DNA of 64,000 bases. It comes from an uncultured Verrucomicrobiae bacterium (GTDB taxonomy: Bacteria; Verrucomicrobiota; Verrucomicrobiia; Limisphaerales; Palsa-1400). The stretch is taken from positions 896,001-960,000 of the forward strand of contig CAVXRD010000001.1 of assembly GCA_963764165.1 (NCBI GenBank), read 5' to 3'. Positions 34,295 to 64,000 of this stretch are shown in pieces. A program made the translations under genes and the position numbers. Positions within the stretch are counted from its first letter, which is position 1. Each line of letters opens with the position of its first letter. The notes under the pieces are model-generated. The model was not told where the DNA came from. It saw only the letters and a program-made list of their open reading frames with translations, and made no database searches.

Positions 34295-34384
34295 GAGAAA
34301 TAGAAAATGAGATTCGGGGCTTGACGCTGCATGGAGCGTCGGGCATAGACAATCAAACTAAATAATTAATAACGGAGTGCATCG

Positions 34385-34630: not shown

Positions 34631-34681
34631 GCCGGCAGCACTTTGCCTGGGCAGCGCGGTCAAGCTCGCTGCCCTTTTTTT

Positions 34682-37012: not shown

Positions 37013-39328
<2,316 letters not shown>

Positions 39329-39692: not shown

Positions 39693-39832
39693 TGCCCTCC
39701 CGTGACAGGAACCGGAAATTGACTTCGCAGAGGAATTTAGGGAAAATTGCTTCAATGTCCGCAGTCAGGTCCTCCGTACATAATGGCGCAATAGCGCAGT
39801 TGTTTGCGCCAAAATCGCCCAAACTTTCGTTC

Positions 39833-42838: not shown

Positions 42839-43479
42839 CGACAGTTTTGATTGCCGACGATCACCCGGTTTACCGGGAAGGATTGCGACGCGTTATGGAA
42901 TCCAGCCCGGCCATCCGCATCGTCCAGGAAGCCTCCAACGGCCAGGAAGCGTTGCGCTTCATACAACAATCGCCGCCGGACGTCGCGGTCCTGGATGTCA
43001 ACATGCCGCTGATGAACGGGCTTGAAGTGGCCCGCCAAATGAAGGCCTGCCAGTCCCCTGCCCGGATCGTTTTCCTCACCATGCATCAGGAAGAGGACCT
43101 GTTTAACGAAGCCATGGACGTTGGCGCCATGGGCTTCGTGCTTAAGGAAAGCGCCATGTCGGACATTCTGGCGAGCATCACGACTGTGGCCCAGGGGCAG
43201 TATTATCTTAGCCCGGCGATTTCAGCATTCCTCGTGCGCAGGCAGGCCGGCAAAATGGCCCTTGAAGCCAAACATCAAGGCATCGCCCGCCTGACGCCCG
43301 CCGAGCGCAAAATTTTGCGCCTGATCGCCGAGAACCGCACCAGCAAGGAAGTGGCCCACGAACTCGGCTTAAGTGTCCGCACCGTGGAAAACCATCGGGC
43401 CAACATTTGCGCCAAGCTGGAACTGCGCGGCATTCACAGTTTGGTTCGGTTTGCATTCGAAAATCGGTCTCATCTTTAA
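42835..43479 (+). CDS. NarL/LuxR-family response regulator
   Basis: IADDH, LDVNMP, K; LuxR-type HTH (LTPAE...TVENHRANICAKL); ATGA overlap with the kinase. Confidence 0.96.
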   Translation: MTTVLIADDHPVYREGLRRVMESSPAIRIVQEASNGQEALRFIQQSPPDVAVLDVNMPLMNGLEVARQMKACQSPARIVFLTMHQEEDLFNEAMDVGAMGFVLKESAMSDILASITTVAQGQYYLSPAISAFLVRRQAGKMALEAKHQGIARLTPAERKILRLIAENRTSKEVAHELGLSVRTVENHRANICAKLELRGIHSLVRFAFENRSHL

Positions 43480-43496: not shown

Positions 43497-43525
43497 TGAG
43501 TAAAACTACTCAGGCCGAATGAGTA
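43497..43525. promoter_or_regulatory. Putative NarL-type operator
   Basis: Perfect palindrome TGAGTA-AAAC-TACTCA (43497-43512) plus a further TGAGTA at 43520-43525. Confidence 0.55.
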
Positions 43526-43571
43526 GGCACCGCTATACACAGGCAGATTGCATTCCGCTATCGTGGCTAGA

Positions 43572-43961
43572 GTGGCCACAACTACCGACGATATAAACCC
43601 GATCATTAATGTCGTTTTGATCGCGGACGACCATGCCCCCTTTAGAGGCCTCGTGCGAAGCCTGTTTTCTTCGGAGACAACACATTTCATCGAATGCGGT
43701 GATGGCGAGGCGGCCGTGCGAGCCTATTCGGAGAAGCGTCCAAATTGGGTTTTGATGGACGTCGAAATGAAGGGGATGAGCGGATTGAAGGCCACCCGGC
43801 TCATCAAGGACAAATACCCGGAAGCGCGCGTGATCATTGTAACTCAATATGACGATCACGACCTATGCGCAAAAGCGGGCGAAGCGGGAGCATGCGCTTT
43901 TATCCTGAAAGACAACATTGCCGATTTGCGCCGTTATCTCAACGCAACGCGCCCTGCCTAA
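43572..43961 (+). CDS. Single-domain response regulator (receiver only)
   Basis: VLIADDH, LMDVEM, T and K conserved; start uncertain (GTG 43572 or 43563, or TTG 43548). Confidence 0.85.
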   Translation: MATTTDDINPIINVVLIADDHAPFRGLVRSLFSSETTHFIECGDGEAAVRAYSEKRPNWVLMDVEMKGMSGLKATRLIKDKYPEARVIIVTQYDDHDLCAKAGEAGACAFILKDNIADLRRYLNATRPA

Positions 43962-43964: not shown

Positions 43965-46900
43965 ATGAAAACACAGAATAAATATCCGAGCAAACGCTCG
44001 ATTGCGCTGGTCCGAGCTGTCGCGCGTGTTTTGGTTTTGACTGCCCTGCTCGCCGCCTGGCCCGCCTTTGCCCTGCCCGTCATCTACGTCAACCAGCATG
44101 CATCCGCCGCCTCGGCCCAGACGGGCGTTAACTGGGCCAACGCGTATAAGGAATTGCGCAACGCGTTGCCCGCCGCCAATGCCATCGCCGCGACCAACGG
44201 ACAGGGTGTCGAAATATGGGTGGCTTCCGGCACGTATTATCCTGACGTGCAAAGCTCCCAGAATCGATTTGCGACCTTTAACGTCGGCAGCAAGGTGACC
44301 ATTCGCGGCGGTTTCGCAGGGTCTGAGACCAGCCCCACCCAGCGGTTGCCCGCGTTCGACCAATTTGGCAACCCCGCGTTCTTGACGGTGCTCAGCGGCG
44401 ACATTGGCCAGCCGATGATCACACAGTTGAGTTCGACGAACACCTTGTCGCAATTCCTGAACACGCCGAATTTTCCTTACTTCACGAATGCGGTGGGGCC
44501 AGGTTCACTTGCCAACGACCAGGACAATTGTTTTAACGTCGTGACACTAAAGAATGTCGCGGGTGTCTCGCTGGATTCGCTGGTCATTTACGGCGGCTAC
44601 GCTGGAAATTTAATGGAAGACGGGACAAATGTAGTATCCGTCAACGAACTGGAAAGCATAGGACTGTGGAATTCGAACAGCGTGACCAGTCCGCTCTACC
44701 CACTCACGAATATTGTGGCCGGCGGTGGCATACTCTTGACCTTTCCGCCGTCCAATATCCACCGCCCCGCTTCCGAAATCGCCCTGACCATGACCAATTG
44801 CGCGGTCTGGGGCAACTATAGCGCGGGCTACGGCGGCGGCATGTGCGTCTACGGCGGCAATATCATCCTTCGAAACTGCCAGTTTGAATACAACGTGGCA
44901 GGCATGGACGGCGGAGCAATTTGGGATGCCAGCGTCCACTCGGAAATCGATTTATGCACCTTTGAGCGCAACGTGGCGACGGAGTCCGGGGGCGCGATTG
45001 GCTACATCACGTTTGACTTTCCGTTCACCGTCGCGAACGCCGAGCAGGAAGTGTCGACAAACAGCACGCTGGTCTCCCAGCAGGTCGAATCCATTGTGCA
45101 TACAGTGACGCGCGGGCTTGGCGTTACTAAAACGGCCATGGGGGAGCTTGGACTGACAGAGGAACTCCAGAATGGCGTCAGCGCCGCTTACACATCGCTC
45201 AAAGCGTGGTGGCCATCGGGTTCAGGCGGCATTGAAGGCGCCAATGCCTCCCTGGCGGGAATTCGCGACCTGCAGGATGCCGCCGCAACTCCAACCGGAC
45301 CGAGTTCTCAAGAAATTGCCGATCTGTGGATTAGGAATTTCGGTTCCTCGACCACTTCCGAGGCTGCGGCGGCCGAAATCGCCGAAGATGCCGCCGCAGA
45401 TGCGGAGGATGATATTCCCATTGGGAAACTGTTTGATTTGACGGACGGAGCGGACCTGCCGTTCGCCGTCATCAACCTTGGAACCGACATCGCCATCCTC
45501 GCCGGAGACACGAACGGAATCGGTGGAGAAATTGCGCTGGCCCTTAACAGCAGCACCTCGCAAATCCTATTCTTGGCATCACCTCTGTCGTGGATAATTT
45601 CCGCAGTTGAAGCCGAAATAAGCGATATCGAGTCTCTTGCGGTCGACGCGCCGCCAGAAGATCTCAAGAGCACCTACAAGAAGGCCCAGTTGGGGCAATA
45701 CAACGCGGCTCCGGCTTCCCTTTTGAACGGATGCGTTTTCTCCAACAACACTGCGAACCTGGATGGAGGCGCCTTCAGCGAAGCTTATAAAAACGTGCAA
45801 GCACAAGGCTGCTGGTTCGGAAATAACGACGGCGGTGTTTCCGGCGGCGCAATCTCTTGCGGAGATTGGTGTTTGGCCTACATCGCGGATTCCGCCTTCT
45901 ACGGAAACTCCAGCGAGAACGGCTACAGCGCGGTTCTTAACTGGGGAAATTCGCGAACGTATCTCTATAACAGCACCCTGGTGGGCAATGGGTCGCCGAA
46001 TACCAATTATGCCACGGCGATTGGCAATCAAACCGGATCGGATGTGAAGGTCATCAATTGCGTTCTGTGGGGCAACACCAATGCGGTTAACCGGACGGGA
46101 GGCGCTGACATCACCACCATTACGCGCGCGCTTTTGCCGCCGTCGTCGCAAGCGGCCTACGATTCCATGGGTTCTGCCCAGGGCGACCTCGTCGCCACCT
46201 GCGATGTTTTCAACTCGGACGTCCAAAACGTCGGCCCCTTGGGCACGAAGATATATGACGTCGTGACCGAACAACCCGCCAGCATCGGGCAATCGCTGTT
46301 GAATGTCTTGGATTTCAGTTTCGGCGGAGAGCAGGAGCCAACGATCACGGCCACCGCCGTCTCATTGCCCGCGCCGACTTACGAACAATTCCAATTCGAG
46401 CCGCTAAGCGTGTCAACGGATGTTTATGATGCGATTAACAATATCTATCAGGATGTCATTTGGTGGGACTTCGCTGGTCTGGCAGAAACTGTCGGCTTTG
46501 TCAACATCGGGGAAGGGACAGTGACGTGGCCTTATGAAGGGGCTACCGTTGAACCCGGTGACTACAACAACAACCCTCAGTTGGGAGGCTTCGAGGGCAT
46601 TGATCCAAAATCGTCCTCGCCCATCAGCGCGGGATATGATTACCCGCTGGAAATTTACGGACAATTTCTTTGGTCTGCTTATGCGGAAAGCTCACTGCCA
46701 TCGTTCAACGTGGCCCGTGAGAACGACCCGGCGATGGACGCGTTTGACTCCTACAACGAATACGATATCCACGGTCTCAGGCGGGAGGGTTCAATAGGCG
46801 CCTCCGATCCGCTGGCAACCTCCACCGCGTCCGAGAATGGCATCTCTCCTTTGGCAGCGCCCTTGGAGCTAGGACTTATCGGCAATGGGAGCGGCCCCGT

Positions 46901-49900
46901 CCTGTTCGTAAACGCCAGTGCGACGGGGAATGGAAGCGGCAGTTCATGGGCGAATGCCGTGACTAGCTTTTCCCAAGCTGTGCAAACATTGCTTCCCACT
47001 GGCGCGCAAATTTGGGTTGCAGGCGGCAATTACGCCGCCAATGGTGTGACGGTGGCGGCGAGCACGGTGATTTACGGCGGCTTTGCCGGCACGGAATCCA
47101 ATTTAACCGGGCGCGTTTTGGGAGCGCATCCAACCGTCGTGCATGGCAACGGCAGCGGGGCCGTTTTAATTTTGAACGGCGCCGTGATGATCGACGGATT
47201 GAACATAACGGGCGGCGGTTATTCCGACGAGTATAATGGCGGCGGTGGTGTGTATTCCTCCGACTCCATTGACCTTGCTACTTTCTCCAATTGCGTCTTC
47301 AGCAATAACACAGCCAACGAGGGTGGAGCGATGTATCTGATGGGTCCCGCATTGATCGCGAACTGTTCCTTCTTAAACAACAGCGCCAGCTACGAGGGCG
47401 GAGCACTGATGCTTGAGGATTACACCAACTACAGCGGCGATGTAAGGCTGTATGATTGCGTTTTTGCCGGAAACTCCGCGGCCTATGGCGGCGGCGTCCT
47501 TATTCGCGGCCCCGATGTGAACACCGGCGTCGAGTTTCATGTTGTCAATGACACGTTTTATAACAACCGATCCACCTCCAGCACGCCTTACCGTTCAGCC
47601 AGCCAGCCGGGCGGCGGCGGACTTTTGTTTGATGACAGCGAGACTGGCTTTTTGACGGTCCAGAACTGCATTTTCTGGCAAAATTCAGCGCCGGGCGGAG
47701 CGAACATAGAATGGCAGCAGTTGGAAGCAGCTCCTTACACGCTTTACGAATCCTATTCGCCGATTGAGTATGGTTATCGCCAATTTGCCGTGGGCTCCTC
47801 GCTCATCGAAGGCATGGGAGTGTATTCGAGCCCGCAACCCTTTGACGAGAACGACATTGGATATCCGAATTATCCCGCATATCTGGCGGCGAGCAATGCG
47901 CTTTCCCTGGACCCGCTCTTTGCGAATCCAGCCGCCAACAACTTCAATTTGACAGCGGGTTCTCCCGCGTTGGGTGCCGGCATCGGCTCAGGCTTGCCCG
48001 CCGGGTTCCCCTACTCCGACCTGGCGGGAAACCCGCGGGAAATTGGCTCACGCCTGGACCTGGGCGCCTATGAATATCAGGGGGCAGTTAACCCTTATGG
48101 CGTTGAGGTGACGGCTTACCAAGGCTGTGGCGGCGGATTAGGCAATGCCACGATGCAGGCCACCTGGAACATGAACACCGCCGTCAGCGGATTGCAGTGG
48201 CAAGTGTATTATCCTGGGGCAACCGGCTGGAGCAATGTCAGTGGACAATATTACACAGGAATCAATTCCAGCAACTTGAACATCACAGGATTGCCGCCCT
48301 CGCTCAACGGAACCTTCTACCGACTGGTGGCAAATTCGCCGCCGGGATTTGCCTCGTCACCCGTGGCAATAGCGTTCTCGCCGATAATCTATGTCAATTC
48401 GCGCCAGGGTTACGCTGGCAATGGCACGTCATGGAACAATGCTTTCGTGGATATCCAGAGCGCTCTTGACGTCTCGACAGGCTGCCAGCAAATCTGGGTC
48501 GCAGGAGGCATTTACAATGGAGACTTGTTCATCGGCAATAATCAAAGCGTCGGTCTGATCGGCGGGTTTGCCGGCAATGAGACAAGTCTGGCCCAGCGCA
48601 ATTGGCGGGCGAACCCAACAATCCTCAGCGGCCAAGGCGCCGGCAACGCCAATCCGTTGGTGGAAATGGAAGGCAGCGCCGTGATGGACGGCTTCATCTT
48701 GACAGGTTCAACGAGCTATTCGGTGGTGGACTGTTACGGCAACACGCCTTCCCTTCAGAACTGCAACATCACCAACAACCAGGGGACGGCGGCGATGTTT
48801 AACAACTGCGTCTCTGCATCCGTGGTTAACTGCATGGTGCAAAGCAACGGCGGCGGCGGCCTTAGCTCCAGCGGCCCGCTCAGCGTCGTCAACTCCCTCA
48901 TCGTCAATAACAACTCCGCGTTCCTGGCCGCCATCAACGCCTATAGCCAATTGTCCGTGATCGGCTGCACCATCGCAGGCAATCAGGGCTACACGTGCGG
49001 CGGAATTGAAACCATCAATGCCGCGGTCACCATTAAAAACTCAATCTTATGGCAAAATACCGCCAACCCCATTTACGCCACTCCTTCGCTGATGGAGTTG
49101 TCAGCGCAGGGCAGCTCGCTTTCAATAGCCAATACCATTATCGAAAATTGGAACGGCGGCGGAGCATTGCCGTTTGACCCGTTATTCGTTTCGTCCGCCA
49201 CTAACTTTCAATTGACAGCGCATTCGCCTGCCATAGGCGCGGGCAATCCTTCCGAGATCGACGGACAGGCGACGGACTTGGCGGGAAATCCGCGCGTGAG
49301 TTTCCGCAACAACACGACCCAGGTGGACTTGGGGGCCTACGAATATGCGGGCGCGGCGAGCAGCCCGGTGGCGCTTTATGGATCGCCGAAATCGATCACC
49401 AGTTGCACAACCGCCAATCCCATCTCCTTCACGGTAGCCGCCTCGAACAGCTTGGACAGCGTGACTTGGCTGGTGAACGAGGGTCACGGGTTTGCAACCG
49501 CCACCGCGGGAGCTACCTTCCAACTGACGCAAAGCTCCGGCGTCACGAATACGGCCACGCTGACCATCCCCACTCCTTTGCAAAGCATGAACGGCTGGCA
49601 GTTTGAAGCGCAGATTGGCTCGTACACAACTCTGCCGGCCATTTTGAATTTCGTGCCGCCGACAGTGATTTACGTCAATCAATCAGCCCCTGGAGCCAAC
49701 AACGGCACAAGTTGGAATGACGCTTACACGAGCCTCGCCAGCGCCGTGGCGGAAGCGAACGGCTGCTCGCAAATCTGGGTGGCGGGCGGCATTTACAGCA
49801 ATCCGGGCGGCGCCAGTTATTCCCTGCCGGAGGGAGCCGGGCTCTATGGCGGTTTTGCCGGTTACGAGGATGCACTGAATGAGCGAAGCCCCAACAACAG

Positions 49901-52900
49901 CCCAACCATTTTGACCACCGACAATTCCGATGACATCATTTCGCTCGGTCAATATGCCAAACTAACGCCAGCCACGGTGGTGGATGGTTTCACATTTCAG
50001 CTTAACACCGGAGTGGGAATCGGGAATTACAGCGGGGCCGCAACTGTCCGCAACTGCAGCTTTGAAGGACCGACGATTTTTGCAATCTACAATGTCGACT
50101 ATTCGGGTTCTATCACCGGGAGCACATTTTCCAACGTTCAAGGAGTAGCGATTCAGAGTGAATTCTCCAGCCCGGTGATTGCCAGCAACACCTTCCTGAA
50201 TTGCAGTTCATCCGCGAACTTCCCCTTGCTATATGGCGAGGACTCCGTGCAATCCGTCGCGGCCTGCTCCTTCGTAAGGAACACTACCGCCTGCGTCGGC
50301 AGTGAAAATGGCGGCGGGGTCACACTCACGCGCAGTTCGTTCCTGAGCAATAACGCTCCCTCGGGAGCCGTATATCTGACCGGAGGGAGCGTGGCCAGCA
50401 CCATCAGCGACTGCTTATTCGTCGCCAACAGCAATGCGTTTCGCGGTTCGGCCATCCAGGACTACAATAACAACACCACGGTGGTCAATTGCACGTTCGC
50501 CGACAACGTGACGGCTTACGGAGGCGCACTCTACTTTTCTGAAGGCGGTGCAGTCATTGCCAATAGCATCCTCTGGAGCAATACCGCAACTCTTGCGAGC
50601 GCGTATTTCGTCTTGCCCGAAGTGCAGCAGGTGCAAGTGGCCGCAGGAACTATCATCGTGTCCAACACGGACGTCGAGGGCTTGAATAAGTTCAACGGCA
50701 GCGGCAATATGGGTTACAATCCCCAATTCAACTTTCCGCCGTATGATTTCAGCTTGTCGACGAATTCTCCGCTGATCAACGCAGGCAGTTTGAATTTTGC
50801 GTCAGCGGCAGGCGCGGTCGATCTCGCAGGGGCCAACCGCACCGCGCGAGGTGCGATTGATATGGGCGCTTACGAATTTCAAGGAACACCCGCCACACCG
50901 GTCTATTCGACGGGAATTCCAGGATTGGTCAGTTTGTGCTCCGGTCGCGCCAATACCCTCAGCGTTCCGCTGACGGCCAATCTAACAAATGGATTCGTTT
51001 GGCAATTATGGTCGCCGACGGGCGACGTGACGGAACTTGGGGATGCCAACAGCTCGGCGCCCGGTTATTCGATCGCCGTTGGGAACAACCAGACTTCCAT
51101 CACTTTCCAGCCTTCCGAGAGTTTGATTGGATCGTCTTTTGTAGCGTTGGAAGCGGACGGTTCCAACGCCGTTGTCACCATCGCCGGACTGCAAGATCCG
51201 GAAATCATTTACGTGAATTCGGCGGCGGCGGGCGCCAACACTGGGACAAGTTGGACGGATGCGTTCACCAGCTTGCAGCCAGCGCTGAATCAGGCCTCGT
51301 GCTCGGATATCTGGGTCGCGGGCGGCCCCTATGTGGCCTCGACGTTTACTGTCAACAACGACGTGCATGTTTACGGTGGATTCGCAGGAGGAGAGACCAA
51401 CGTTTCCCAACGCAACTGGCAAATCAACACCACGACCCTCCAAGGCTCTGGCAATGACTTCACCATTCAAACCTTTGGATCCCCGCTCTTTGACGGCTTC
51501 ACGATCGCTTCCTCGGCGGCAACGCATTCGGCCGTGTTCTTATACGGTGGCAGCCCCACGCTTCAGAATTGCGTATTCCAAAACGTGACTGGCGGCGCGA
51601 TACAAACTGAAGGCGCATCCGCGCAGATCGTCGCCTGTCAGTTCCGCGGCAATTCTGCGCAGAACAATAGCGCCGGGGGAGCCATTGACAATTCATTTCA
51701 TTCAATCATGCTGGTGGATCAGTGCATTTTCACCGGCAACAATGCCATCAGCGGCGGCGCTGTGTTCAATGACAACACTTCCGCTATCACGCTGCTGAAT
51801 TGCTTGTTCACCAGCAACAACGCAACGGATGGCGGCGCAATTTACAATCTCGGGCAGGCTACCGCGATCAATTGCACGCTATATGGCAACACGGCCGAGA
51901 GGGGTGGAGCTTGGGAGCAGTATTCATCGGGCAGCGCGCCGGCCTCGGCCACCATCATTAATTCTATTTTGTGGAACAACGCCGCCACCGGCTATGGCAT
52001 TGTTTCCTATTCCTTGGAGGACTCGGAAGCAGACGGGACCAATATCGCCATTTCCTATTCAACAGTGCAGGGAATCACGCCTGGATATGCCAATCTCTCC
52101 ACCGATCCCCTGTTTGCAAATCCGTCAACGGGAAACTTTGCGTTGTCGCCATGGTCTCCCGCCATCGGCAGGGGTGAACCTTGGCCGGGATTGAATTGGA
52201 CCAATTACCTCTCAGTCGATTTGAACGGGACGCCGCGCTCGCCGACCAGTGATGACCAAGGCGCTTACGTGGCAGCCGGCCACTCAAACACACTTAATTT
52301 CGATTCTCCATTGACCTCAGCGGCGGGCTGCGTTGGCGGGTCAGCCATCTTCGGCATCAGCTATCCGCCAGGGAGTGGATATAACATCGCTTGGCTGGTA
52401 AACACCGGCTCTGGCTTTGCCAGCGTGGCATCCGTTTTTCCAGGAGGCGGATACACGATCAGCAACGGTCTTGGTGGTTCCTCACTTAGTTTTGAGGCGC
52501 TGCCGCTGGCCCTGAACGGGATGCAGGTCGAATTCCAGGTCGGAAGCGCAAGCTACACATCCCCACCCGCCACCCTGACCGTTTCCTCGCCAACGGTGAT
52601 ATACGTGAATGCCGCCGCAACCGGCGCCAATAACGGCACGAGCTGGACGGATGCCTATACCAACTTGATTTCGACGCTAAGTTCCGCTCCCAGTTGCACT
52701 GCGATCTGGGTCGCGGGAGGAAACTACGTTCCAAGCGGCTCGCAGCAGACGTTTGTTTTGCAGCCTGACCAGCAAATTTACGGAGGGTTTGCCGGAAACG
52801 AAACAAACGTGAACGAACGCGTCTTTGGGATGCATCCCACCTTATTGGGAAACCTGCTAATAGAGGCCACGGATAGTTCCATCGACGGCAACTCAAGGCT

Positions 52901-55900: not shown

Positions 55901-58900
55901 AAATTACCCGGCGCATCTACTGGGAAACGGCTCATATGCCCTCGTGGACAACGCGCAAAACGGACTCAACGCCGCGACGCTCCTGGACGGGTTCACGTTG
56001 ACCGGCGCCGGATCATTTCCGGCTGTAATTAATTACCAAAGCAGCCCTGCGTTCGCAAATTGCTCATTTGTCAACAACAGCAACGCGGGCTTCGGCCAGG
56101 CCATCGTGGAAAATCAGTCGGGGTCGCCTGTCTTCAATAACTGCCTCTTTGCCAGCAACAGCCAATTGTGTGTTTACAATTTCACGGCGTCACCGGCCTT
56201 CAACGGCTGCCAGTTTATCGGCAACCAGAATTCCAATGGTGTGGGCACTGTGGAAAGTTTTGGTGATACCAGCCATCTCTTGCAAAGCGGCCCGCAGTTT
56301 ATCGGATGCAAGTTTATTGGCAACTCGGCCCAGCAGGCTGGCGCCATTTTCAACGACAACGGGGTTTGCCAGGCTGTTAACTGCGTGTTTTCCAACAACA
56401 CCTGCGGCAACATTGGGGAAGGCGGCGCACTCGTCAATTCTCAGAGCGGCGGACTATCCGTCTTTGGCGTCACGAATTGTTTGTTCGTCAGCAACTCCGC
56501 CTACACGGGAGGGGCGACAGGGAACGATGGCGGACTGCTATACCTTGTCAATTGCACCGTCACACGCAACACGGCCGCCCAAGCCCCGGCCGGCTTGTTT
56601 GACAGGCAGACTGGGGGCGGCACGTTTTGTTTGAACTCAATCGTTTGGCAGAATCTGGCGAGCGGCGTGGAGAGCACGCCATCCGAAATGACGGACTCGG
56701 TCTTCTCTTCAAATTCTTGCATCGAAGGAATTGCTCCGGCGGGATACTCTGTCGGTGGCGGAGTGATCCAATATGATCCGCTCTTTGTCAATCCGGCCAC
56801 TGGCAATTGGCAATTGTCCCCCAACTCTCCGGCCATTGCCGCAGGCAACCCTCAACTCGACGGCAGCGTCAGCACAGATTTGGCGGGCAATCCCCGCGTT
56901 GTGAATGGAACGGTGGATCTGGGGGCCTACGAATTGGGACTGCCGCGCTCCGCCTCGCCTCTCGAATTGGTGTCGGGGCCGGAATCCCAAACGATCTGCG
57001 CGGGCGAGAGTGCCATCTTTACCGCGACCGGAAATGCGGGTGTCAATTATACATGGGAGTATAACATTGGGTCCGGCTGGAATTCTTTGTCTTCCGGCGG
57101 CAGCCAGACCCTGGCCACCACGTCAACCAGCACCACCCTGACAGTCTCCAATGCGCCTCAATCGCTCAATGGCATCCAATACCGCTTGAACGTGTCCACA
57201 GCAACAGCGACTAATCAATTCTACGCTACATTGACGGTGACTCCTTCGGGCGTGATCTATGTCAATGCTGCGGCCGGTGCAGGTGGCAATGGCACTTCGT
57301 GGGCGCAGGCCTACAACAATCTAGCCGTAGCTTTGCAAAACGTGGCCGCCTGCGACTCAATCATCTGGGTGGCCCACGGAACCTATGCCTCTTCAAATCT
57401 CAATGTTCAACCCGGTGTTTCGCTCTATGGGGGTTTCGTTGGCACAGAAACCAATCTCACCCAGCGCCAGTGGCAGGCCAATCCCTCAGTGCTATCGGGC
57501 GGAATCGCTTTCCTCGGCGATGCGCCGCTGCCAGGTTCTTCGCCGACAATTCTGGATGGCTTTTACGCCGAGGGCGGCACAGTCGGCGTATCCATTTCAG
57601 GCGCCTATCCGCCGACGCTCGCTACCGTATCTGTGCAAAATTGCGTCATCGCCAACAATTCCCAATACGGCGTCACCATCTCTGAACCAGCCGCCAGCGG
57701 AAGCGTGGTGCAGAACTGCCTGATTGAATCGAATGGCCTGGCGGGCGCGTTCCTTTGGAACTGCAGCGCCACTGTCCTCAACTGCGTCATAACGGCCAAC
57801 GGAAATGCCACGACGCTGGGTGGCGGCGTGGTGTTGTATGGAGTTGACAACGGGACCCTTTTATCCAGCGCGCAACCGACCGTTGAAAACTGCTTGATCC
57901 ATGGAAATTTCGCCCAGCAGGGCGGCGGCATGTATGCGTATTCGAGCGTGTCGAGCTTTGTCGAACCAACGATCGTCAATTGCGTCATCGAAAGCAATTT
58001 GGCTGGGGCGGGCAGCGCGCTTTATTCGCAGAACAGCTACGTCTCAGTCATCAATGACACCATTGTCAATAATACCGGCACCGCGCCCTATCCCGGCTAC
58101 GGCGCGGCCATATCCGGCGCGGCGCTGAATCCAGATTCAGTTTTGATCACCATTGAAAATTCGATTTTGTGGAACAACTTGGCGGCGGGAACCAATGGCG
58201 TGGCCGCGGAATATTTTGCGCCGCTGCAAAACATCGTGGAATACCTGGTTTATAATTCGGACGTCGAAGGATATCCGGCATCAGCAGGAAGCGGCAATCT
58301 GGGCGCGGATCCTCTTTTTGTTGACAGCGCCACGAATTTGCAATTATCCGCCTCCTCACCGCTGCTGGGTGCTGGCAACGCTTCGGATATCGCCGGCTAT
58401 GCCTTGGATGCGGCGGGAGCGCCTCGCCTCATTAACAACCGTGCCGACCTTGGCGCATATGAATTCCAAGGAACGCCCTCGTCTGCCGTAACAGTCTCGC
58501 AGTATCCCGTGTCCACGATTTATTCCCCCTGCTCCAGCACGTTGACAGTGGTCGCCAGCGGTAACGCGCTGACTTACCAATGGCAAGTGAACACAGGCGC
58601 CGGTTTTGTGAACATTCCGGGCGCTACGAGCTCGTCATTTACAGCAAGCCCGGCACCCGCCAATGGAACACAATATCGCTGCCTCATCGCCAGCGCCGGA
58701 GGCTCCGCCTCGCCGACGACAGCGGCAACGATGACCGTTTATCCACTCGTTTGGTATGTGAATGCGGCAAGCCCGGGCGGTGATGGAACGTCTTGGGCAA
58801 CGGCTTTTACCACGCTGGAACAAGCGCTGGCCAACCCATTGCTCCAGCATTGCGGTGAACAAATTTGGGTCGCGGCGGGAATCTATCAGCCTACCAACAA

Positions 58901-61900
58901 CCCATATAATTCATATATCCCGCTGAGCCTGTTGGAAGGCGTAACACTGTACGGCGGATTTAGCGGAACAGAAACCAACCTGAGCCAGCGCAATTGGATT
59001 GCCCACCAAACTATTCTTGACGGCAGCAAGCTGGAGGCAAGCTCAGCTATCATCAACAACCTGAGCAGCATGGACGGCTCCGCCTCAGTTGATGGATTCG
59101 TATTCCAGAATGCCCAGACGGGAGTGGAGAACAATACAGGGGCAAATCCCACAGTCGCGAATTGCACTTTCCTCACCAGCATAGAACAGCCTCTTTACAA
59201 CTATCAGAACAGCGCGCTCATTACGAACTGCGTCTTTAACGGATGCGGTGAAGCTTACAACCAGGACTCCTCCAGCAAATACGTGGGTTGCACATTCGAG
59301 AATACCACTAACTCGGCAATTCTCTTTTTCAATGATGCCGGTGTCGGAGCCCAAGGAACCATCGCGCGCTGCCAATTCGTTAACAACACCGGCGGCTGCG
59401 TTTCCGTTAACGCATCAGTCCTGATAAGTGATTCGCTGTTCACGGGCAATTATGGCAACAGCCGCGAGGTGATATTCGTGGATCAAGCCACCCTGCGCCT
59501 TGTAAACTGCACATTCACGGGCAACAGCGGAGCCAACGCCGCTTTCCTTATCGGCGAGGAGCAGGCGAGCATCGGCATTTATAATTCCATCTTTTGGAAT
59601 AATTACTGCGGGTTGACTCAAGATTCATCAGAGCGGGGCATGTTTGGATATCCTGGCTATACATTCACCCAAGTAGCCGAAGCGGCCAACAATGACATTC
59701 AGTCCCCTTCCCTCCAGTTCAACGGAAACGGCAACGTGAGCCTGGATCCGATCTTCCAGATGCCGCTGCCACCGTTGACTTCCGAGGGGCCGATTGCGGC
59801 GAGCGGGGATTTCCATCTTACGGCGGATTCGCCGCTGCTTGCAGCGGGCGCTGTTGGGCAGGTCGCCGATTCGGTGGATTTCGACGGAATGCCGCGTGAA
59901 GTCAATGGTTCCGTGGCGATGGGTGCTTACGAATACCAAGGCGGACAAGGCTCGCCGGTGGTGATCACGCAGCAGCCGGAATCATTCGTGTATTGCTCCA
60001 GCGCCACGAATTACTTTGAAATTGGCATCAGCGGAGCGGAGGTAAATTATCAATGGCAAGTCAATCAAAACAACGGGCTTGGTTTCGCTTCCATCAGCGC
60101 CGCCACGAATGCGGTATTACCCATTGTCAATGCCACCATTGCTGAAAATGGATGGCAGTATCGCTGCCTGGTCAGCGCGGCCGGAGGCGAATTGTATTCC
60201 AGCACAGCCTCTTTGACCATTTATCCCAATCGCCTTTACGTCAACGCGACCAGTGCCGGCGGCGACGGTTTGTCATGGGCCACCGCCTTCAACACATTGC
60301 ATCAGGCCCTCAATGCTCCGGTGGATCCTTGCTCAGAAAATCAGGTTTGGCTCGCCGCCGGAACCTATTCCGACGTGAATCTGGCGGAGACCGAGTTGCA
60401 AATAGTCGGCGGTTTTGCCGGGACCGAGACGAATGCCGCGCAGCGGACGTTCACCAGCGCGCCAACGATCATCACAAGCACTCTCTACTATAACGGTTCC
60501 TTGGTCGATGGGGTCACCTTCAACGGCGCGGTGCTGGATTGCGTCAGCGACACAACAGTTACCAATTGCGCTTTTGTCAATGGAACAGGAGGAGGCGGTT
60601 GGTCCAGCGTGATGCTGAATTGGGAAGCGTATACGGGACAAGAGGCCGGCCAGGGAAGCGTCGTCGTCAATTGCCGTTTCACAAATGATGCCTACGGCGT
60701 CTTCGCCGGTTTGAACGCAACGGTTTCCAACTGCTGGTTTGTGGGGCAACGGGATGAGGCCATCAGCGGGCCGCCATATAATAGCTTTAATTCCAGCTCC
60801 AGCGTCGTTATCAATCATTGTTCGTTTATCTCAAATCTGGACACTTGTTTGGCGTTCGACAGCCAAGGATACATTGGGCAAAACATTTCGATCCTTCATT
60901 CGGTGTTCGAATACAACAACAGTTGGCCGGTTTTCTCAGCGGCGGATAACATTGCGATGAAGGATTCGTTGGTGGCGAATAACGGGAATGGAATATACCT
61001 TCAGTACGGATCAGGCAGCTTCACCGGTTGCACGATCGTTGGAAACCAAGGCGAGGGCGTCAACGCCAACTATGCTGCGTTGAATTTGACTAATACGGTG
61101 TTGTGGGGAAATTCGCAAGGCGGTTACTTTTCAGTGTCTGGCTATCCTCTAACGTTCGACCATTGCTGGGTGCAAGGCAGCGCTTCCGACCCTGTGTTCG
61201 CCGGGGTCGGCAATTACACTTTGTCGCCATGCTCGCCACTCATCGGCGCGGGTGATGTCAGCGCCGCCAACGGCGACCCGCTTGACCTGGCCGGCAACCC
61301 CCGCACCTACAATGGCTCGGTGGATATTGGCGCCTACCAATTCGAGGGAGTTCAAGCGGCCGCCTTCTCCATCGCTGCGCAACCGTCAAATCAATTGGGC
61401 GACTCGGCCAACGCAGTTGAGTTCACGGTTCAGACTTCGCGCGCAGCGGGTGCTTATCAATGGCAGGAGGCCGGCCCCGGGGGCGCCTTTACCAACCTGG
61501 TTGACGGAGGCGTTTATCTGGGAAGCCAGACCGCGACATTAACAGTCACCAACGCCTCCCCATCAATGAATGGCAGCCAATTCCAATGTGTTGTCGCTTC
61601 TCCTGAAGGCTGCACGCTGGTCTCTTCCGTGGCGGAGTTAGTCTATGGCATTCCGCTGGCTGCGGCATTGGAGGCGCCAACTGGCGTGACCGTAAACTTT
61701 TCCGGAGCCGCGCCCTGGTTTGGCGAGACGAATGTGACACATGATGGCCTCGTCGCTGCTCAAAGCGGTGGCGGCCTTCGGAATGGACAAGAAAGCACCA
61801 TGACGGCCGAGGTTCAAGGACCAGCCACTGTTAGCTTCTGGTGGTATCTTTCCAGTTACGGCAGGTTGCAGTTTACGGTGGATAACTCTTCCATTGCGGC

Positions 61901-64000
61901 CATCGATAATGAAGTTGGCCCCTGGCAACAAGTAACGTTTCAAATCGCAAGCGGGTCGCATCAATTGCAATGGAATTTTGAAGAATATCAAACTGGCTTA
62001 GGTGTGGATGCCGCCTGGGTATCTCAGTTAACCGTTGTGGGCAATCCCGGCGTCTCCGCATTGCCCGCCCTTACCGTCGTGCCGCAAGGCGCTAGCCAAA
62101 CCTACTCTGTCACCACGACGGGCAACGCGCCGTTCACTTATCAATGGTATTTTGACGGTTCCCAAATCGGCGGAGCTACGTCTTCCACCTACTCCGTTTC
62201 CAGTGTCCAGCCGTCCAACGCCGGCACGTATTCTGTGGTGGTGGGCAACGTCCTCGGTTCGGTTGATGCTTCGAATGCGGTCTTGGCCGTGACCGGGCCG
62301 CTGTCAGCGGCCCTTGCGAATTCGGCCAACACGTGGCTGACGGGCGGTGACGCCCCTTGGTTTGCCGAAACCAACGTAACTTATGGAACGAACGCCTATG
62401 CCGCCCAATCCGGCAGCATCGGAGCCAATCAGCAAAGTTGGATGCAGACGACGATTTCCGGACCAGGCACTCTATCGTTTCTATGGCAGGTCTCGTCTCT
62501 CACCAACCATGGGTTGCTGGAATTCTCGATTAATGGGGTGTCGACCAATCAGTTGACGGGACAAGCCCCGTGGCAGGGTTACACCAATCATTTCGATGCG
62601 GGCACCTACACCTTCCGCTGGACTTACTTGCAAGATGGTCAAGTCAGCGCCGCAACCAACGCTGGCTGGGTCGATCAGGCAGCGTTTGCGCTTGACGCAA
62701 GTGTAAGTTTTGCCGTGACCAACAATGCCGACAGCGGTCCCGGCACCCTGCGCCAGGCCATCCTGGATGCCAACGCGACCCCCGTCTTCAGTGTTATCGA
62801 TGCTACTTCCATTACAGGCGCGATTAATTTGCAGAGCATGCTGCCGATTATCACCAACGCCATCAGTCTGAAAGGCCCCGGCAGTTCGAGCCTGACCATC
62901 AATGGAGGTGGCACGAACCGCATCTTCTTTGTTGATGCACCCAACCTTAGTGTCACTTTCAGCGGAGTGACTTTATCCAACGGATTGGCTCGCGGCGGCA
63001 ACGGCGGTGATTCCGGAGGTGGCGGCGGAATGGGCGCAGGTGGCGCGCTCTTCGTCAACGGTGGCGCCATCACGGTTTCAAGCGTTAGTTTTCTCAACAA
63101 CGCCGCACAAGGTGGCGTTGGGTCGAGTTCTCAAAACAACAGCTTCGGGAGCGCCGGCGGCGGTGGCGGAATGGGTGGCAACGGCGGCGGTGGACAATTT
63201 GGCAGCGGCGGTGGCGGCGGTTTGCTCGGCAACGGCGGCATTGGCGGCGAAGGCGGTGGCGGCGGTGGCGGCGGCGGTCTCTATGCCAACGGCGGCAACG
63301 GCGATTCCCAACAGACAGGCGGCGGCGGTGGCGGAGGTTTAACGGCGGGTTCGAATGCGGATTCAACCCAGGATAGCGGCGGCCTTGGCGGCATCGACGG
63401 TGGCATGGGCGCGTCGGTTTCCGAAATTTACACCAATGGCGGCGACATCGTCGTGGCAACAAACGCCGCCCCTGGCGAAGCTTTTGGCGGCGGCGGCGGC
63501 GGCGCGGGTGGGCTGTGGGGAACACAAGGTGGCGGCGTGATCTATGCTCCAACAGCCGCAACTGCCGGCGCCAACGGAGGCAAATACGGTGGTGGCGGCG
63601 GCGAAAGCGGCAGCCTGCAAAATAACCGCACCGGCGGCGGCGGCAACGGCGGTGATTTCGGCGGCGGCGGCGGCCAAAGCGGAGACGCTTCCGGCAATGG
63701 CACAGGGCAAGGTGGATTCGGCGGTGGCGGCGGCGGCGGCGGCAACGGTTACACTGGCCGCACCGAATTGGCCGGGAATGGCGGATTCGGCGGTGGAGGG
63801 GGCGGCGGCGGATCATATGGTGGCGACGGCGGTTATCCTGGACCTTACGGTGGCGGTTCCGGTATTTCGGAATTTGGAGATGTAGGGCCGGGCGGAGGCG
63901 GTGCGGCGTTGGGCGGAGCGGTTTTTGTGCGCGCCAACATTGGCACCTCGATTCACATTATTGACAGCGTCGCGGACAACGGTTCAGTTACCGGGGGCGC
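43965..64000 (+). CDS. Giant secreted multi-module protein (>6,670 aa, 3' end outside the window): 11 beta-helix/choice-of-anchor-Q modules with Ig linkers, then other domains and a Gly-rich region
   Basis: ATG 43965 with signal peptide (...VLTALLAAWPAFA). The same frame reads as sensible protein at every point I checked through IDSVADNGSVTGG at 64000. The ORF track lists nothing in this frame, which is expected if there is no stop. Confidence 0.93.
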   Translation, partial: MKTQNKYPSKRSIALVRAVARVLVLTALLAAWPAFALPVIYVNQHASAASAQTGVNWANAYKELRNALPAANAIAATNGQGVEIWVASGTYYPDVQSSQNRFATFNVGSKVTIRGGFAGSETSPTQRLPAFDQFGNPAFLTVLSGDIGQPMITQLSSTNTLSQFLNTPNFPYFTNAVGPGSLANDQDNCFNVVTLKNVAGVSLDSLVIYGGYAGNLMEDGTNVVSVNELESIGLWNSNSVTSPLYPLTNIVAGGGILLTFPPSNIHRPASEIALTMTNCAVWGNYSAGYGGGMCVYGGNIILRNCQFEYNVAGMDGGAIWDASVHSEIDLCTFERNVATESGGAIGYITFDFPFTVANAEQEVSTNSTLVSQQVESIVHTVTRGLGVTKTAMGELGLTEELQNGVSAAYTSLKAWWPSGSGGIEGANASLAGIRDLQDAAATPTGPSSQEIADLWIRNFGSSTTSEAAAAEIAEDAAADAEDDIPIGKLFDLTDGADLPFAVINLGTDIAILAGDTNGIGGEIALALNSSTSQILFLASPLSWIISAVEAEISDIESLAVDAPPEDLKSTYKKAQLGQYNAAPASLLNGCVFSNNTANLDGGAFSEAYKNVQAQGCWFGNNDGGVSGGAISCGDWCLAYIADSAFYGNSSENGYSAVLNWGNSRTYLYNSTLVGNGSPNTNYATAIGNQTGSDVKVINCVLWGNTNAVNRTGGADITTITRALLPPSSQAAYDSMGSAQGDLVATCDVFNSDVQNVGPLGTKIYDVVTEQPASIGQSLLNVLDFSFGGEQEPTITATAVSLPAPTYEQFQFEPLSVSTDVYDAINNIYQDVIWWDFAGLAETVGFVNIGEGTVTWPYEGATVEPGDYNNNPQLGGFEGIDPKSSSPISAGYDYPLEIYGQFLWSAYAESSLPSFNVARENDPAMDAFDSYNEYDIHGLRREGSIGASDPLATSTASENGISPLAAPLELGLIGNGSGPVLFVNASATGNGSGSSWANAVTSFSQAVQTLLPTGAQIWVAGGNYAANGVTVAASTVIYGGFAGTESNLTGRVLGAHPTVVHGNGSGAVLILNGAVMIDGLNITGGGYSDEYNGGGGVYSSDSIDLATFSNCVFSNNTANEGGAMYLMGPALIANCSFLNNSASYEGGALMLEDYTNYSGDVRLYDCVFAGNSAAYGGGVLIRGPDVNTGVEFHVVNDTFYNNRSTSSTPYRSASQPGGGGLLFDDSETGFLTVQNCIFWQNSAPGGANIEWQQLEAAPYTLYESYSPIEYGYRQFAVGSSLIEGMGVYSSPQPFDENDIGYPNYPAYLAASNALSLDPLFANPAANNFNLTAGSPALGAGIGSGLPAGFPYSDLAGNPREIGSRLDLGAYEYQGAVNPYGVEVTAYQGCGGGLGNATMQATWNMNTAVSGLQWQVYYPGATGWSNVSGQYYTGINSSNLNITGLPPSLNGTFYRLVANSPPGFASSPVAIAFSPIIYVNSRQGYAGNGTSWNNAFVDIQSALDVSTGCQQIWVAGGIYNGDLFIGNNQSVGLIGGFAGNETSLAQRNWRANPTILSGQGAGNANPLVEMEGSAVMDGFILTGSTSYSVVDCYGNTPSLQNCNITNNQGTAAMFNNCVSASVVNCMVQSNGGGGLSSSGPLSVVNSLIVNNNSAFLAAINAYSQLSVIGCTIAGNQGYTCGGIETINAAVTIKNSILWQNTANPIYATPSLMELSAQGSSLSIANTIIENWNGGGALPFDPLFVSSATNFQLTAHSPAIGAGNPSEIDGQATDLAGNPRVSFRNNTTQVDLGAYEYAGAASSPVALYGSPKSITSCTTANPISFTVAASNSLDSVTWLVNEGHGFATATAGATFQLTQSSGVTNTATLTIPTPLQSMNGWQFEAQIGSYTTLPAILNFVPPTVIYVNQSAPGANNGTSWNDAYTSLASAVAEANGCSQIWVAGGIYSNPGGASYSLPEGAGLYGGFAGYEDALNERSPNNSPTILTTDNSDDIISLGQYAKLTPATVVDGFTFQLNTGVGIGNYSGAATVRNCSFEGPTIFAIYNVDYSGSITGSTFSNVQGVAIQSEFSSPVIASNTFLNCSSSANFPLLYGEDSVQSVAACSFVRNTTACVGSENGGGVTLTRSSFLSNNAPSGAVYLTGGSVASTISDCLFVANSNAFRGSAIQDYNNNTTVVNCTFADNVTAYGGALYFSEGGAVIANSILWSNTATLASAYFVLPEVQQVQVAAGTIIVSNTDVEGLNKFNGSGNMGYNPQFNFPPYDFSLSTNSPLINAGSLNFASAAGAVDLAGANRTARGAIDMGAYEFQGTPATPVYSTGIPGLVSLCSGRANTLSVPLTANLTNGFVWQLWSPTGDVTELGDANSSAPGYSIAVGNNQTSITFQPSESLIGSSFVALEADGSNAVVTIAGLQDPEIIYVNSAAAGANTGTSWTDAFTSLQPALNQASCSDIWVAGGPYVASTFTVNNDVHVYGGFAGGETNVSQRNWQINTTTLQGSGNDFTIQTFGSPLFDGFTIASSAATHSAVFLYGGSPTLQNCVFQNVTGGAIQTEGASAQIVACQFRGNSAQNNSAGGAIDNSFHSIMLVDQCIFTGNNAISGGAVFNDNTSAITLLNCLFTSNNATDGGAIYNLGQATAINCTLYGNTAERGGAWEQYSSGSAPASATIINSILWNNAATGYGIVSYSLEDSEADGTNIAISYSTVQGITPGYANLSTDPLFANPSTGNFALSPWSPAIGRGEPWPGLNWTNYLSVDLNGTPRSPTSDDQGAYVAAGHSNTLNFDSPLTSAAGCVGGSAIFGISYPPGSGYNIAWLVNTGSGFASVASVFPGGGYTISNGLGGSSLSFEALPLALNGMQVEFQVGSASYTSPPATLTVSSPTVIYVNAAATGANNGTSWTDAYTNLISTLSSAPSCTAIWVAGGNYVPSGSQQTFVLQPDQQIYGGFAGNETNVNERVFGMHPTLLGNLLIEATDSSIDGNSRLDGLCFTNYGGNATLVYLSGCGPVVANSVFTGGNFEVDAASSTATFTNCSFLNNGSDSCIFTFGSTNVEPTIEGCQFIGNLTGIYAEGPVSVAGCLFESNLNTAVIGQSGRIAGSSFIGNIADSYAVASGVLLQGTSKISSCLFAWNSGANAPVYVEGGQVVNCTFVHNEGWVGAADGTCNLANCLVWKNSGQYGNFYGSVNVSQSQVDSYYPYFVNDAGGNWQLTSNSPALRAGGVGNVIDTVDLAGNPRTTGGQVDLGAYEYTNAQVAPAFIAGLPASVTICSENGTGLQGGASISVAGAAGYTYTWQQVGGGVVTNNADVTISSSANASVLFFPDPGIQLNGASFQVTAQTPYGSVAVPGTATLTVLPRQIIYVNASNIISGDGSSWANAYTSLTPALAEAGNNPCSEVWVAAGVYKPQSLGVPNGIPILGGFAGWETSNLQRNWTNNVTVLGGSGGPLTQYTSDSFGLTYSSGTGGPLLENVSVLDGFTVSNCSGAALLLSLSTPPVIANCTFVQNTGTADPNSDAALISFVTDETVVVTNCVFQNNQNILLRMAISLVANNVNQLVDVTGCLFESNSVTPVVMLDAGRLLLEGCRFLTNQTADTGTIYTGYGTTALDRCILAGNAGQDLNYTGGGAALECDYGTVTIKNSLLVGNSGRFCGAIENSMSTVVVENCDVVQNTGNYSCGGIFNGAGGTLTLANSIFWNNSAIQDGGTLAEQQIYNSQSIQEYYNLGNLINCCVQGLPEYYIGGYFYDPLFVNPSAGNYHLQSVSPYLNSGNNTYASSLDLDGNARIAGGTVDLGCYEFAGTAGAPEQIFQQPVSQTVCAGNPANFAYLYQSGTVQWYWNNGSGFQPVVNSASQYVQASTVTLPNGTVGGGPLTALSSTLIVTNTSTDFNGYQYMAVLDNYTNPVSVLTVNPRSVIYVNSNSRGANSGADWLDAFTNLDEALGMAGGCEQVWVAQGTYIPSTSFVLQQGVEVYGGFAGTETNLAQRDWTNYPAHLLGNGSYALVDNAQNGLNAATLLDGFTLTGAGSFPAVINYQSSPAFANCSFVNNSNAGFGQAIVENQSGSPVFNNCLFASNSQLCVYNFTASPAFNGCQFIGNQNSNGVGTVESFGDTSHLLQSGPQFIGCKFIGNSAQQAGAIFNDNGVCQAVNCVFSNNTCGNIGEGGALVNSQSGGLSVFGVTNCLFVSNSAYTGGATGNDGGLLYLVNCTVTRNTAAQAPAGLFDRQTGGGTFCLNSIVWQNLASGVESTPSEMTDSVFSSNSCIEGIAPAGYSVGGGVIQYDPLFVNPATGNWQLSPNSPAIAAGNPQLDGSVSTDLAGNPRVVNGTVDLGAYELGLPRSASPLELVSGPESQTICAGESAIFTATGNAGVNYTWEYNIGSGWNSLSSGGSQTLATTSTSTTLTVSNAPQSLNGIQYRLNVSTATATNQFYATLTVTPSGVIYVNAAAGAGGNGTSWAQAYNNLAVALQNVAACDSIIWVAHGTYASSNLNVQPGVSLYGGFVGTETNLTQRQWQANPSVLSGGIAFLGDAPLPGSSPTILDGFYAEGGTVGVSISGAYPPTLATVSVQNCVIANNSQYGVTISEPAASGSVVQNCLIESNGLAGAFLWNCSATVLNCVITANGNATTLGGGVVLYGVDNGTLLSSAQPTVENCLIHGNFAQQGGGMYAYSSVSSFVEPTIVNCVIESNLAGAGSALYSQNSYVSVINDTIVNNTGTAPYPGYGAAISGAALNPDSVLITIENSILWNNLAAGTNGVAAEYFAPLQNIVEYLVYNSDVEGYPASAGSGNLGADPLFVDSATNLQLSASSPLLGAGNASDIAGYALDAAGAPRLINNRADLGAYEFQGTPSSAVTVSQYPVSTIYSPCSSTLTVVASGNALTYQWQVNTGAGFVNIPGATSSSFTASPAPANGTQYRCLIASAGGSASPTTAATMTVYPLVWYVNAASPGGDGTSWATAFTTLEQALANPLLQHCGEQIWVAAGIYQPTNNPYNSYIPLSLLEGVTLYGGFSGTETNLSQRNWIAHQTILDGSKLEASSAIINNLSSMDGSASVDGFVFQNAQTGVENNTGANPTVANCTFLTSIEQPLYNYQNSALITNCVFNGCGEAYNQDSSSKYVGCTFENTTNSAILFFNDAGVGAQGTIARCQFVNNTGGCVSVNASVLISDSLFTGNYGNSREVIFVDQATLRLVNCTFTGNSGANAAFLIGEEQASIGIYNSIFWNNYCGLTQDSSERGMFGYPGYTFTQVAEAANNDIQSPSLQFNGNGNVSLDPIFQMPLPPLTSEGPIAASGDFHLTADSPLLAAGAVGQVADSVDFDGMPREVNGSVAMGAYEYQGGQGSPVVITQQPESFVYCSSATNYFEIGISGAEVNYQWQVNQNNGLGFASISAATNAVLPIVNATIAENGWQYRCLVSAAGGELYSSTASLTIYPNRLYVNATSAGGDGLSWATAFNTLHQALNAPVDPCSENQVWLAAGTYSDVNLAETELQIVGGFAGTETNAAQRTFTSAPTIITSTLYYNGSLVDGVTFNGAVLDCVSDTTVTNCAFVNGTGGGGWSSVMLNWEAYTGQEAGQGSVVVNCRFTNDAYGVFAGLNATVSNCWFVGQRDEAISGPPYNSFNSSSSVVINHCSFISNLDTCLAFDSQGYIGQNISILHSVFEYNNSWPVFSAADNIAMKDSLVANNGNGIYLQYGSGSFTGCTIVGNQGEGVNANYAALNLTNTVLWGNSQGGYFSVSGYPLTFDHCWVQGSASDPVFAGVGNYTLSPCSPLIGAGDVSAANGDPLDLAGNPRTYNGSVDIGAYQFEGVQAAAFSIAAQPSNQLGDSANAVEFTVQTSRAAGAYQWQEAGPGGAFTNLVDGGVYLGSQTATLTVTNASPSMNGSQFQCVVASPEGCTLVSSVAELVYGIPLAAALEAPTGVTVNFSGAAPWFGETNVTHDGLVAAQSGGGLRNGQESTMTAEVQGPATVSFWWYLSSYGRLQFTVDNSSIAAIDNEVGPWQQVTFQIASGSHQLQWNFEEYQTGLGVDAAWVSQLTVVGNPGVSALPALTVVPQGASQTYSVTTTGNAPFTYQWYFDGSQIGGATSSTYSVSSVQPSNAGTYSVVVGNVLGSVDASNAVLAVTGPLSAALANSANTWLTGGDAPWFAETNVTYGTNAYAAQSGSIGANQQSWMQTTISGPGTLSFLWQVSSLTNHGLLEFSINGVSTNQLTGQAPWQGYTNHFDAGTYTFRWTYLQDGQVSAATNAGWVDQAAFALDASVSFAVTNNADSGPGTLRQAILDANATPVFSVIDATSITGAINLQSMLPIITNAISLKGPGSSSLTINGGGTNRIFFVDAPNLSVTFSGVTLSNGLARGGNGGDSGGGGGMGAGGALFVNGGAITVSSVSFLNNAAQGGVGSSSQNNSFGSAGGGGGMGGNGGGGQFGSGGGGGLLGNGGIGGEGGGGGGGGGLYANGGNGDSQQTGGGGGGGLTAGSNADSTQDSGGLGGIDGGMGASVSEIYTNGGDIVVATNAAPGEAFGGGGGGAGGLWGTQGGGVIYAPTAATAGANGGKYGGGGGESGSLQNNRTGGGGNGGDFGGGGGQSGDASGNGTGQGGFGGGGGGGGNGYTGRTELAGNGGFGGGGGGGGSYGGDGGYPGPYGGGSGISEFGDVGPGGGGAALGGAVFVRANIGTSIHIIDSVADNGSVTGG

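Follow-up and report, generated by a model that had tools for sequence, protein, structure and literature searches.

A giant beta-helix protein of an uncultured Verrucomicrobiae bacterium with an unclassified, predicted helical insert in its first module

A single reading frame opens at position 43965 of the window (the whole stretch of 64,000 nucleotides analyzed here, from a contig of an uncultured Verrucomicrobiae bacterium) and is still open at its end, which raises the questions whether such a frame is a genuine gene and what its product might do. According to the accessible part of one source (10.1101/2023.11.21.568195), Verrucomicrobiota frequently encode proteins of at least 10,000 aa, and giant proteins in general are proposed to act in adhesion. 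Tandem beta-helix giants of other PVC lineages have been proposed to be catabolic or predatory (accessible part of PMC12057145), and giant proteins of Chlorochromatium are reported to cross into the partner cell (accessible part of 10.64898/2026.03.19.712371). Giant PVC proteins are known, but have rarely been sorted into families whose functional end could be tested. Our reading of this locus, to which we assign a probability of roughly 0.55, is that the protein is a secreted, surface-tethered adhesive fiber, in which a C-terminal tail sorts or anchors the molecule, about 45 domains form a rod, and the first module presents a variable helical head.

The initial annotation had described one frame open from the ATG at 43965 past the window end, over at least 6,678 codons, beginning with a signal peptide. 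Traced through the genome contig, this frame (G000:C1:939965-973936, G000 being this genome) continues to a stop at the window-equivalent position 77,936, about 14 kb past the window end, and contains none of the in-frame stops that were to be checked for. The window part (43965..64000, + strand) holds the first 6,678 of 11,323 codons. The protein of 11,323 aa has a mass of ~1.15 MDa (~1,150 kDa) and, without the signal peptide, a pI of 4.05; N-x-S/T sequons are mildly above expectation (219 vs 172). The signal peptide (43965..44072, +) is of the Sec type as read by eye, with a K/R n-region, an apolar core and an AFA site, and homologues have similar N-termini. The closest titled records come from Verrucomicrobiia or Verrucomicrobiota, and one is labeled Saccharimonadales.

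A second genus of this family, represented by contig G012:C116, encodes an orthologue with all 11 beta-helix modules in the same order, so that the array was neither misassembled nor recently amplified. Colinearity extends through the Ig region, the first Gly-rich unit, the stalk and the first NHL unit; that contig stops before the C-terminus of the orthologue. Each module of the giant best matches its positional counterpart (34-48% identity), the second-best match being lower every time. This positional conservation across genera fits either module specificity or plain descent. That paralogous genes were misassembled here, or that the gene is an unexpressed relic, might be suspected from the state of the largest paralogue in this assembly, which is frameshifted and runs off its contig. 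However, the independent genome is fully colinear with the giant, GC3 is even along the gene (0.62-0.69), DNA repeats between modules are absent, the only long repeats of the gene lying in its last Fn3 units (89% over 814 bp), and homologue pairs are under purifying selection. An artefact of this kind is extremely improbable, and the giant is a real, intact gene.

Searching for the module motif gave exactly 11 starts, at 44082, 46902, 48387, 49668, 51207, 52599, 54021, 55680, 57255, 58752 and 60234, each within 3 nt of the start given in the initial annotation. The beta-helix and choice-of-anchor Q identity proposed there agrees with the profiles: PF13229, for right-handed beta-helices, matches two of the six module-containing pieces of the giant, and 9 of the 11 module ends pass the curated cut-off of NF041518, modules 1 and 5 being unlisted. 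By its sequence, the giant belongs to the choice-of-anchor Q beta-helix proteins. An Ig domain had been described as usual after a module; by inspection, an Ig-like segment of 96-117 aa follows each of modules 2-11, and module 1 is followed only by a 31-aa linker with no Ig. Modules 2-11, each with its choice-of-anchor Q cap and Ig-like spacer, occupy 46902..61676 (+); they are 27-39% identical to one another and 21-26% identical to module 1. This divergence, the colinear orthologue and a DNA self-comparison of the gene that gave no match between modules bear out the earlier view that the array did not arise by recent tandem amplification. Of the very long, rigid adhesin or glycan-binding fiber envisaged in the same annotation, the part that stands is a long secreted beta-helix/Ig fiber, given the PF13229 and NF041518 matches and the colinear orthologue. 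C.F..N ladders are conserved across 80 modules drawn from eight homologues and from the own-genome copies of the family.

Module 1 (44079..46901, +) differs from modules 2-11: it is a distinct head, overlooked in the initial annotation, with a beta-helix and five family-specific loops. One of these is a large insert, predicted to be alpha-helical (aa 346-585; 45000..45719, +), with a variable N-half and a conserved, hairpin-like C-half; in module 1, the module profile aligns to the two flanks of this insert but not to the insert itself. The other four loops include the GAD and NxGEG motifs, in a comparison of family residues from which P0005, P0034, P0042 and proteins shorter than 700 aa were left out. 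Across 23 non-redundant homologues, the insert is 151-238 aa long. Its median identity is 14% in the N-half and 26% in the core, against 37-39% in the flanks. The C-half is marked by the conserved motifs AY-x6-V-x3-D-x9-G, xDxN and W-x2-F-x3-F-N-x-Y-A-T-P-x-G and a closing YN. Statements on the fold of the insert rest on hydrophobic periodicity, which is helical in five of six segments, peaking at 85-110 degrees, and peaks at 145 in the last (a spurious second hit in P0030 was dropped from the hydrophobicity and periodicity analysis). The window insert lacks several of the family aromatics (Y493T, W527L, F534I, Y537L) and so may act unlike the rest of the family. P0042 has ~300 extra residues inside the N-half of its head insert.

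A profile of the insert gave 47 matches (E<=0.001), some of them input sequences of the profile, among 1.84 billion representatives of 50% identity clusters. The flanking beta-helix is also matched in 45 of these 47 carriers, the other two being fragments of 159 and 117 aa. Proteins of at least 4,000 aa make up 22 of the 47, and names of carriers in NCBI or IMG are generic. The head module is N-terminal in every full-length carrier bar P0034, where it is internal (~residue 850) and sits behind LamG and RCC1-like repeats. The distribution is rare and patchy: the insert occurs in 3 of 401 phylum genomes and 8 of 401 order genomes, G000 counted, and in none of four same-genus genomes, and the whole-module-1 profile is present in 5 of 30 family relatives. 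Searches of the insert against Pfam, NCBIfam, PHROGs and PDB sequences returned no family. Two word-seeded searches, over 88-433 aa and 453-2,000 aa, gave no match either; the second missed known members, so both null results are weak. No description of this head or of the tail was found in the literature searched, most subscription journals and supplements lying outside its scope, and the phrase 'choice-of-anchor Q' is absent from that literature.

G000 itself encodes three paralogues, and in all four proteins module 1 is interrupted by a long insert at the same rung. Two of the paralogues lie at C3:374070-397661 and C2:453433-468210; the third and largest, from C2:3573935 onward, is frameshifted after 732 codons and then stays open to the end of the contig, over at least 13,029 codons. 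The frameshift falls where module 1 ends, and the upstream NarL gene is likewise split (G000:C2:3572896-3576130), as by sequencing error or decay. This paralogue reaches the contig end in identical MBG repeats, and C5 begins in a similar open stalk frame, on which it may continue. Integrase-, transposase- and relaxase-like genes, recognized by eye upstream of two paralogues (C2:468700-477000 and C2:3563000-3569600), hint at mobile islands.

The insert does not behave as a swapped cassette. In every close pair with computable dS, dN is lower than dS, and each of the six close pairs forms sisters in the insert tree as well as in the flank tree (both calculated without L120), the insert tree being 1.7 times longer. 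The insert is thus an integral, faster-evolving domain of the head, and cassette swapping is not supported, given the congruence of these pairs. To judge from its sequence, module 1 with its insert likely forms a target-binding head.

Beyond the module array, the protein continues with Ig, Gly-rich, NHL, MBG, Fn3, LamG and FG-GAP units and ends in a 76-aa tail. The recognizable binding domains lie in its second 4,645 residues, past the reach of the initial annotation; Pfam and NCBIfam identify a PATR repeat, two NHL propellers, MBG units, Fn3-like units, LamG and FG-GAP repeats there. The window still covers an Ig domain (Pfam Ig_3) between two beta-rich segments left unassigned on inspection (61677..62714, +) and the first Gly-rich unit (62715..64000, +), which extends past the window end and closes with a PATR repeat. 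A second Gly-rich unit, at aa 8870-9500, is 45% identical to the first. Phage gp38 adhesins contain polyglycine-II bundles, and by analogy the two Gly-rich units may form such bundles. Profiles built from intact units show that MBG units are split around the first NHL propeller (aa 7173-7214 and 7490-7531) and around the second (aa 8314-8360 and 8647-8683), and that an Fn3 unit is split around LamG (aa 9892-9947 and 10156-10185). Binding-type domains are thus grafted into loops of rod domains in a repeated design.

The search beyond the window for a C-terminal anchor, advised in the initial annotation, found the stop and a tail with the motif ...TNL..W...F.D...FYR, but no T9SS, autotransporter or LPXTG anchor. 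A tail profile of 76 positions, seeded from this genome and run on its 25,901 ORFs, gave 171 hits in 169 ORFs and none in reversed ORFs; for the giant the score is 70.6 bits (aa 11254-11320). The hit lies within 25 aa of the stop in 154 cases and is internal in 17. A signal-peptide-like start, by a crude rule, is present in 97 of the 154 tail ORFs and in 509 of 1,833 other long ORFs. The tail also ends 17 of the 22 insert-bearing representatives of at least 4,000 aa and is present in 42 of the 151 phylum genomes searched. It has no convincing Pfam match and no NCBIfam match, and against the PDB gave weak matches only (a chitosanase accessory domain, E 0.03). SprA, PorP and CTD models found no match in this genome, and control genomes were equally silent; in the last 545 aa of the giant no autotransporter beta-barrel family was matched. 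The C-terminal element is a tail of this lineage and, judging by its position, likely sorts or anchors the giant in the envelope.

Two secreted sedolisin-like proteases with prodomains were recognized by eye in the window (846-3884, +, and 20107-22983, -), the first of which ends in the same kind of tail. G000 contains more than 60 frames of at least 1,500 codons, many with the shared tail at the end, as well as several RHS-like or TPS-like proteins, by eye. The homologous giants L240-L243 (G657:C1, G707:C15; 11,454 and 9,927 codons) end in another tail (..GA[IV]LQ..G.F), which is also found on other large G000 proteins.

Upstream of the giant lie genes for a sensor histidine kinase with Reg_prop beta-propeller and Y_Y_Y input, HisKA_3 and HATPase domains (39692..42838, +), a NarL/LuxR-type response regulator with Response_reg and GerE domains (42835..43479, +) and a single-domain receiver protein (43548..43961, +), all assigned by Pfam. 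The receiver stop is 3 nt before the ATG of the giant, so the two genes are likely co-transcribed. A three-hexamer box, TGAGTA-N4-TACTCA-N7-TGAGTA, lies at 43497..43525 and is probably a binding site of the adjacent NarL-type regulator. The pattern TRNGTA-N4-TACNYA, drawn after the sites were seen, occurs twice in the 7 Mb genome, both times between a NarL gene and a receiver-giant pair, and 11-16 times in three base shuffles; a similar box is found in locus L129. Kinase, NarL regulator and lone receiver precede both the giant and the C2 paralogue. By eye, the two-component pair lies upstream of two of the four paralogues and a similar kinase or regulator is present in 5 of 20 other loci. Propeller kinases are not enriched beside tail genes (3/12 vs a 27% background), and promoter and terminator scans stayed at chance level. 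Farther upstream, before the sensor kinase, are fabD, fabG and fabF and a catalase-peroxidase gene (32591-35941, +, and 37013-39259, -), and a planctomycete-type cytochrome c protein adjoins a DUF1501-like gene by eye (27628-32369, -). Just downstream of the giant are convergent Hen1-type methyltransferase-like and polynucleotide kinase-phosphatase-like genes (L001:14359-19207, -), by eye an RNA repair pair.

How these parts work together admits several readings. Polysaccharide lyases and hydrolases of the beta-helix type carry catalytic Lys, Arg or Asp on their rungs, and every beta-helix of the giant could be such an enzyme with its own substrate. The fold class is common to pectate-lyase-like enzymes (PF13229), the sensor encoded upstream is of the propeller/Y_Y_Y type, and a catabolic role has been proposed for one PVC giant that combines tandem CASH beta-helices with a PL6 domain (accessible part of PMC12057145). 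However, charged residues conserved in at least 60% of the 80 modules are confined to the N-cap and the choice-of-anchor Q segment, the sole charged residue of note on the rungs being R204, at 51%; rungs without a well-conserved charged residue make lyase activity unlikely. Each of modules 2-11 contains 0-2 lysines, the giant matched no CAZyme-type family in Pfam or NCBIfam, and PDB sequence searches with modules 1 and 5 gave no match. An array of enzymes is accordingly a very unlikely reading, and modules 2-11 are better read, from their sequences, as structural or binding units. The orientation of the fiber might also be the reverse of the one we prefer. LapA-type adhesins of T1SS hold an anchor or retention plug in the envelope of the producer and have a distal adhesive end; the head of the giant would then be the plug, and the C-terminal LamG, FG-GAP and NHL units the adhesive end. 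The head is constant across homologues and the downstream domains vary (PKD, cadherin, YDG, FG-GAP, LamG), and the known binding-type domains cluster toward the C-terminus. Yet the 154 ORFs that share the tail include a sedolisin-like protease with an N-terminal working domain, which fits a C-terminal sorting or anchor role, and a variable region of 14% identity is hard to explain in a generic anchor; we consider the reversed polarity unlikely.

The head, at the tip of a long fiber, might also act on membranes: its insert would enter the membrane of a target cell in the manner of a translocator or a pore-forming hairpin, and so serve contact-dependent attack or firm docking. The core is laid out as an apolar helix, a short GxDxN turn, an aromatic amphipathic helix, a TP kink and an apolar helix, with a mid-helix Asp in 81% of rows, and the window insert is acidic (33 D/E vs 9 K/R). 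A KD19 of 1.6 is reached by 46% of 39 inserts compared with 1.2% of 242 beta-helix control stretches, and the weak leads all point to membrane-inserting helices (SseC 0.79, colicin 0.86, XaxA E 0.045 in 1/29). Nevertheless, helix A reaches 1.6 in 20 of 47 cases and helix C in 0 of 45, and the helix A median of 1.56 is equaled by the best helix of the soluble enzymes FabF and FabG. Soluble controls spanned 1.42-1.56, and the kinase chosen as membrane control scored only 1.22. Since the hydrophobicity of the key helix does not exceed that of core helices in soluble enzymes, membrane insertion, though possible, is not supported. Moreover, Atlas scores stay below 0.9 with low recognition values, insert net charge ranges from -21 to +9, no Pfam toxin family was matched at E<=1 in 23 insert members, and no conserved small immunity-like neighbor was seen upstream of the loci or downstream of the window gene. 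A likeness to colicin E1 was dropped (HHalign 0.3%), and no family HMM or profile of the colicin, SseC, RTX and XaxA domains matched the insert. The six pairs that are sisters in both trees indicate that the insert is not exchanged in the manner of a polymorphic toxin, a class rejected on these pairs and on the lack of a conserved small neighbor gene. A membrane-engaging head is therefore doubtful. Similarly improbable is the combined picture of a new Verrucomicrobiota contact-fiber family with rods of 0.5-1.4 MDa, export by an undescribed C-terminal-tail route, a hairpin on the distal beta-helix that enters the membrane of a partner or prey cell, and target-diversified paralogues.

The adhesive-fiber reading, against which count the 17 internal tails among 171 hits, the internal head of P0034, the lost aromatics of the window insert and the limited occurrence of the two-component pair, would work as follows. 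The protein would leave the cell by Sec export through its signal peptide and be sorted to the outer envelope through the 76-aa tail. A rod of 11 beta-helix units and Ig, MBG and Fn3 units, whose folds are predicted, would hold the head away from the cell, at roughly 200-300 nm if extended (an estimate from typical domain sizes). Binding-type domains split rod domains (NHL in both MBG units, LamG in Fn3, the helical insert in beta-helix 1) and would hence project sideways. The conserved C-half of the insert might serve as scaffold and its variable N-half set the target, so that four divergent paralogues would address four targets. The upstream propeller-type two-component system would control expression through the hexamer box.

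The locus defines a family by a head domain of ~200 aa that can be expressed alone and occurs only in the same beta-helix of secreted giants. Because the giants are tied to a tail of ~150 secreted proteins in one genome, an export or anchoring route of Verrucomicrobiota becomes testable. Should the head insert into membranes, abundant soil and freshwater bacteria would have a contact-dependent interaction system of a new kind.

By the tests run, the giant is not T9SS cargo, an autotransporter or a polymorphic toxin. Module cap and rungs are like those of choice-of-anchor Q proteins (NF041518, PF13229), but the giant has 11 modules in tandem with Ig spacers and an insert of 150-240 aa in the first; Bacteroidota relatives in the loci fetched end in a T9SS CTD, in contrast to the Verrucomicrobial tail. 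T9SS cargo adhesins (type A CTD, PF18962, TIGR04183) similarly combine a signal peptide with a small beta-rich C-terminal domain present on many secreted proteins, but the tail does not align to the CTD (HHalign 0.2%), and a type A CTD is absent from the C-terminus of the giant. Chlamydial Pmp proteins and autotransporters (TIGR01376, PF02415, PF12951) share the GGA(I/L/V) and FxxN rung motifs of module 1 and the PATR repeat, whereas the giant is far longer, multi-modular and without a C-terminal barrel match. Filaments of the CdiA/FHA type are long beta-helix rods with a variable region set in, as is the giant, in which, however, the insert is co-inherited with its flanks and no hemagglutination/TPS domain, partner transporter, C-terminal toxin or immunity gene was seen. 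The giants of Omnitrophota and other PVC bacteria, as described in the accessible parts of 10.1101/2023.11.21.568195 and PMC12057145, also exceed 10,000 aa and are extracellular with adhesion-type domains; the present giant differs in that no SecA, transmembrane array, RHS or hydrolase domains were found, and this module and head are not described in those parts. In its working, the protein would resemble a modular surface adhesin. Giants of the Verrucomicrobiota are already on record; the surprising part is the unclassified head domain.
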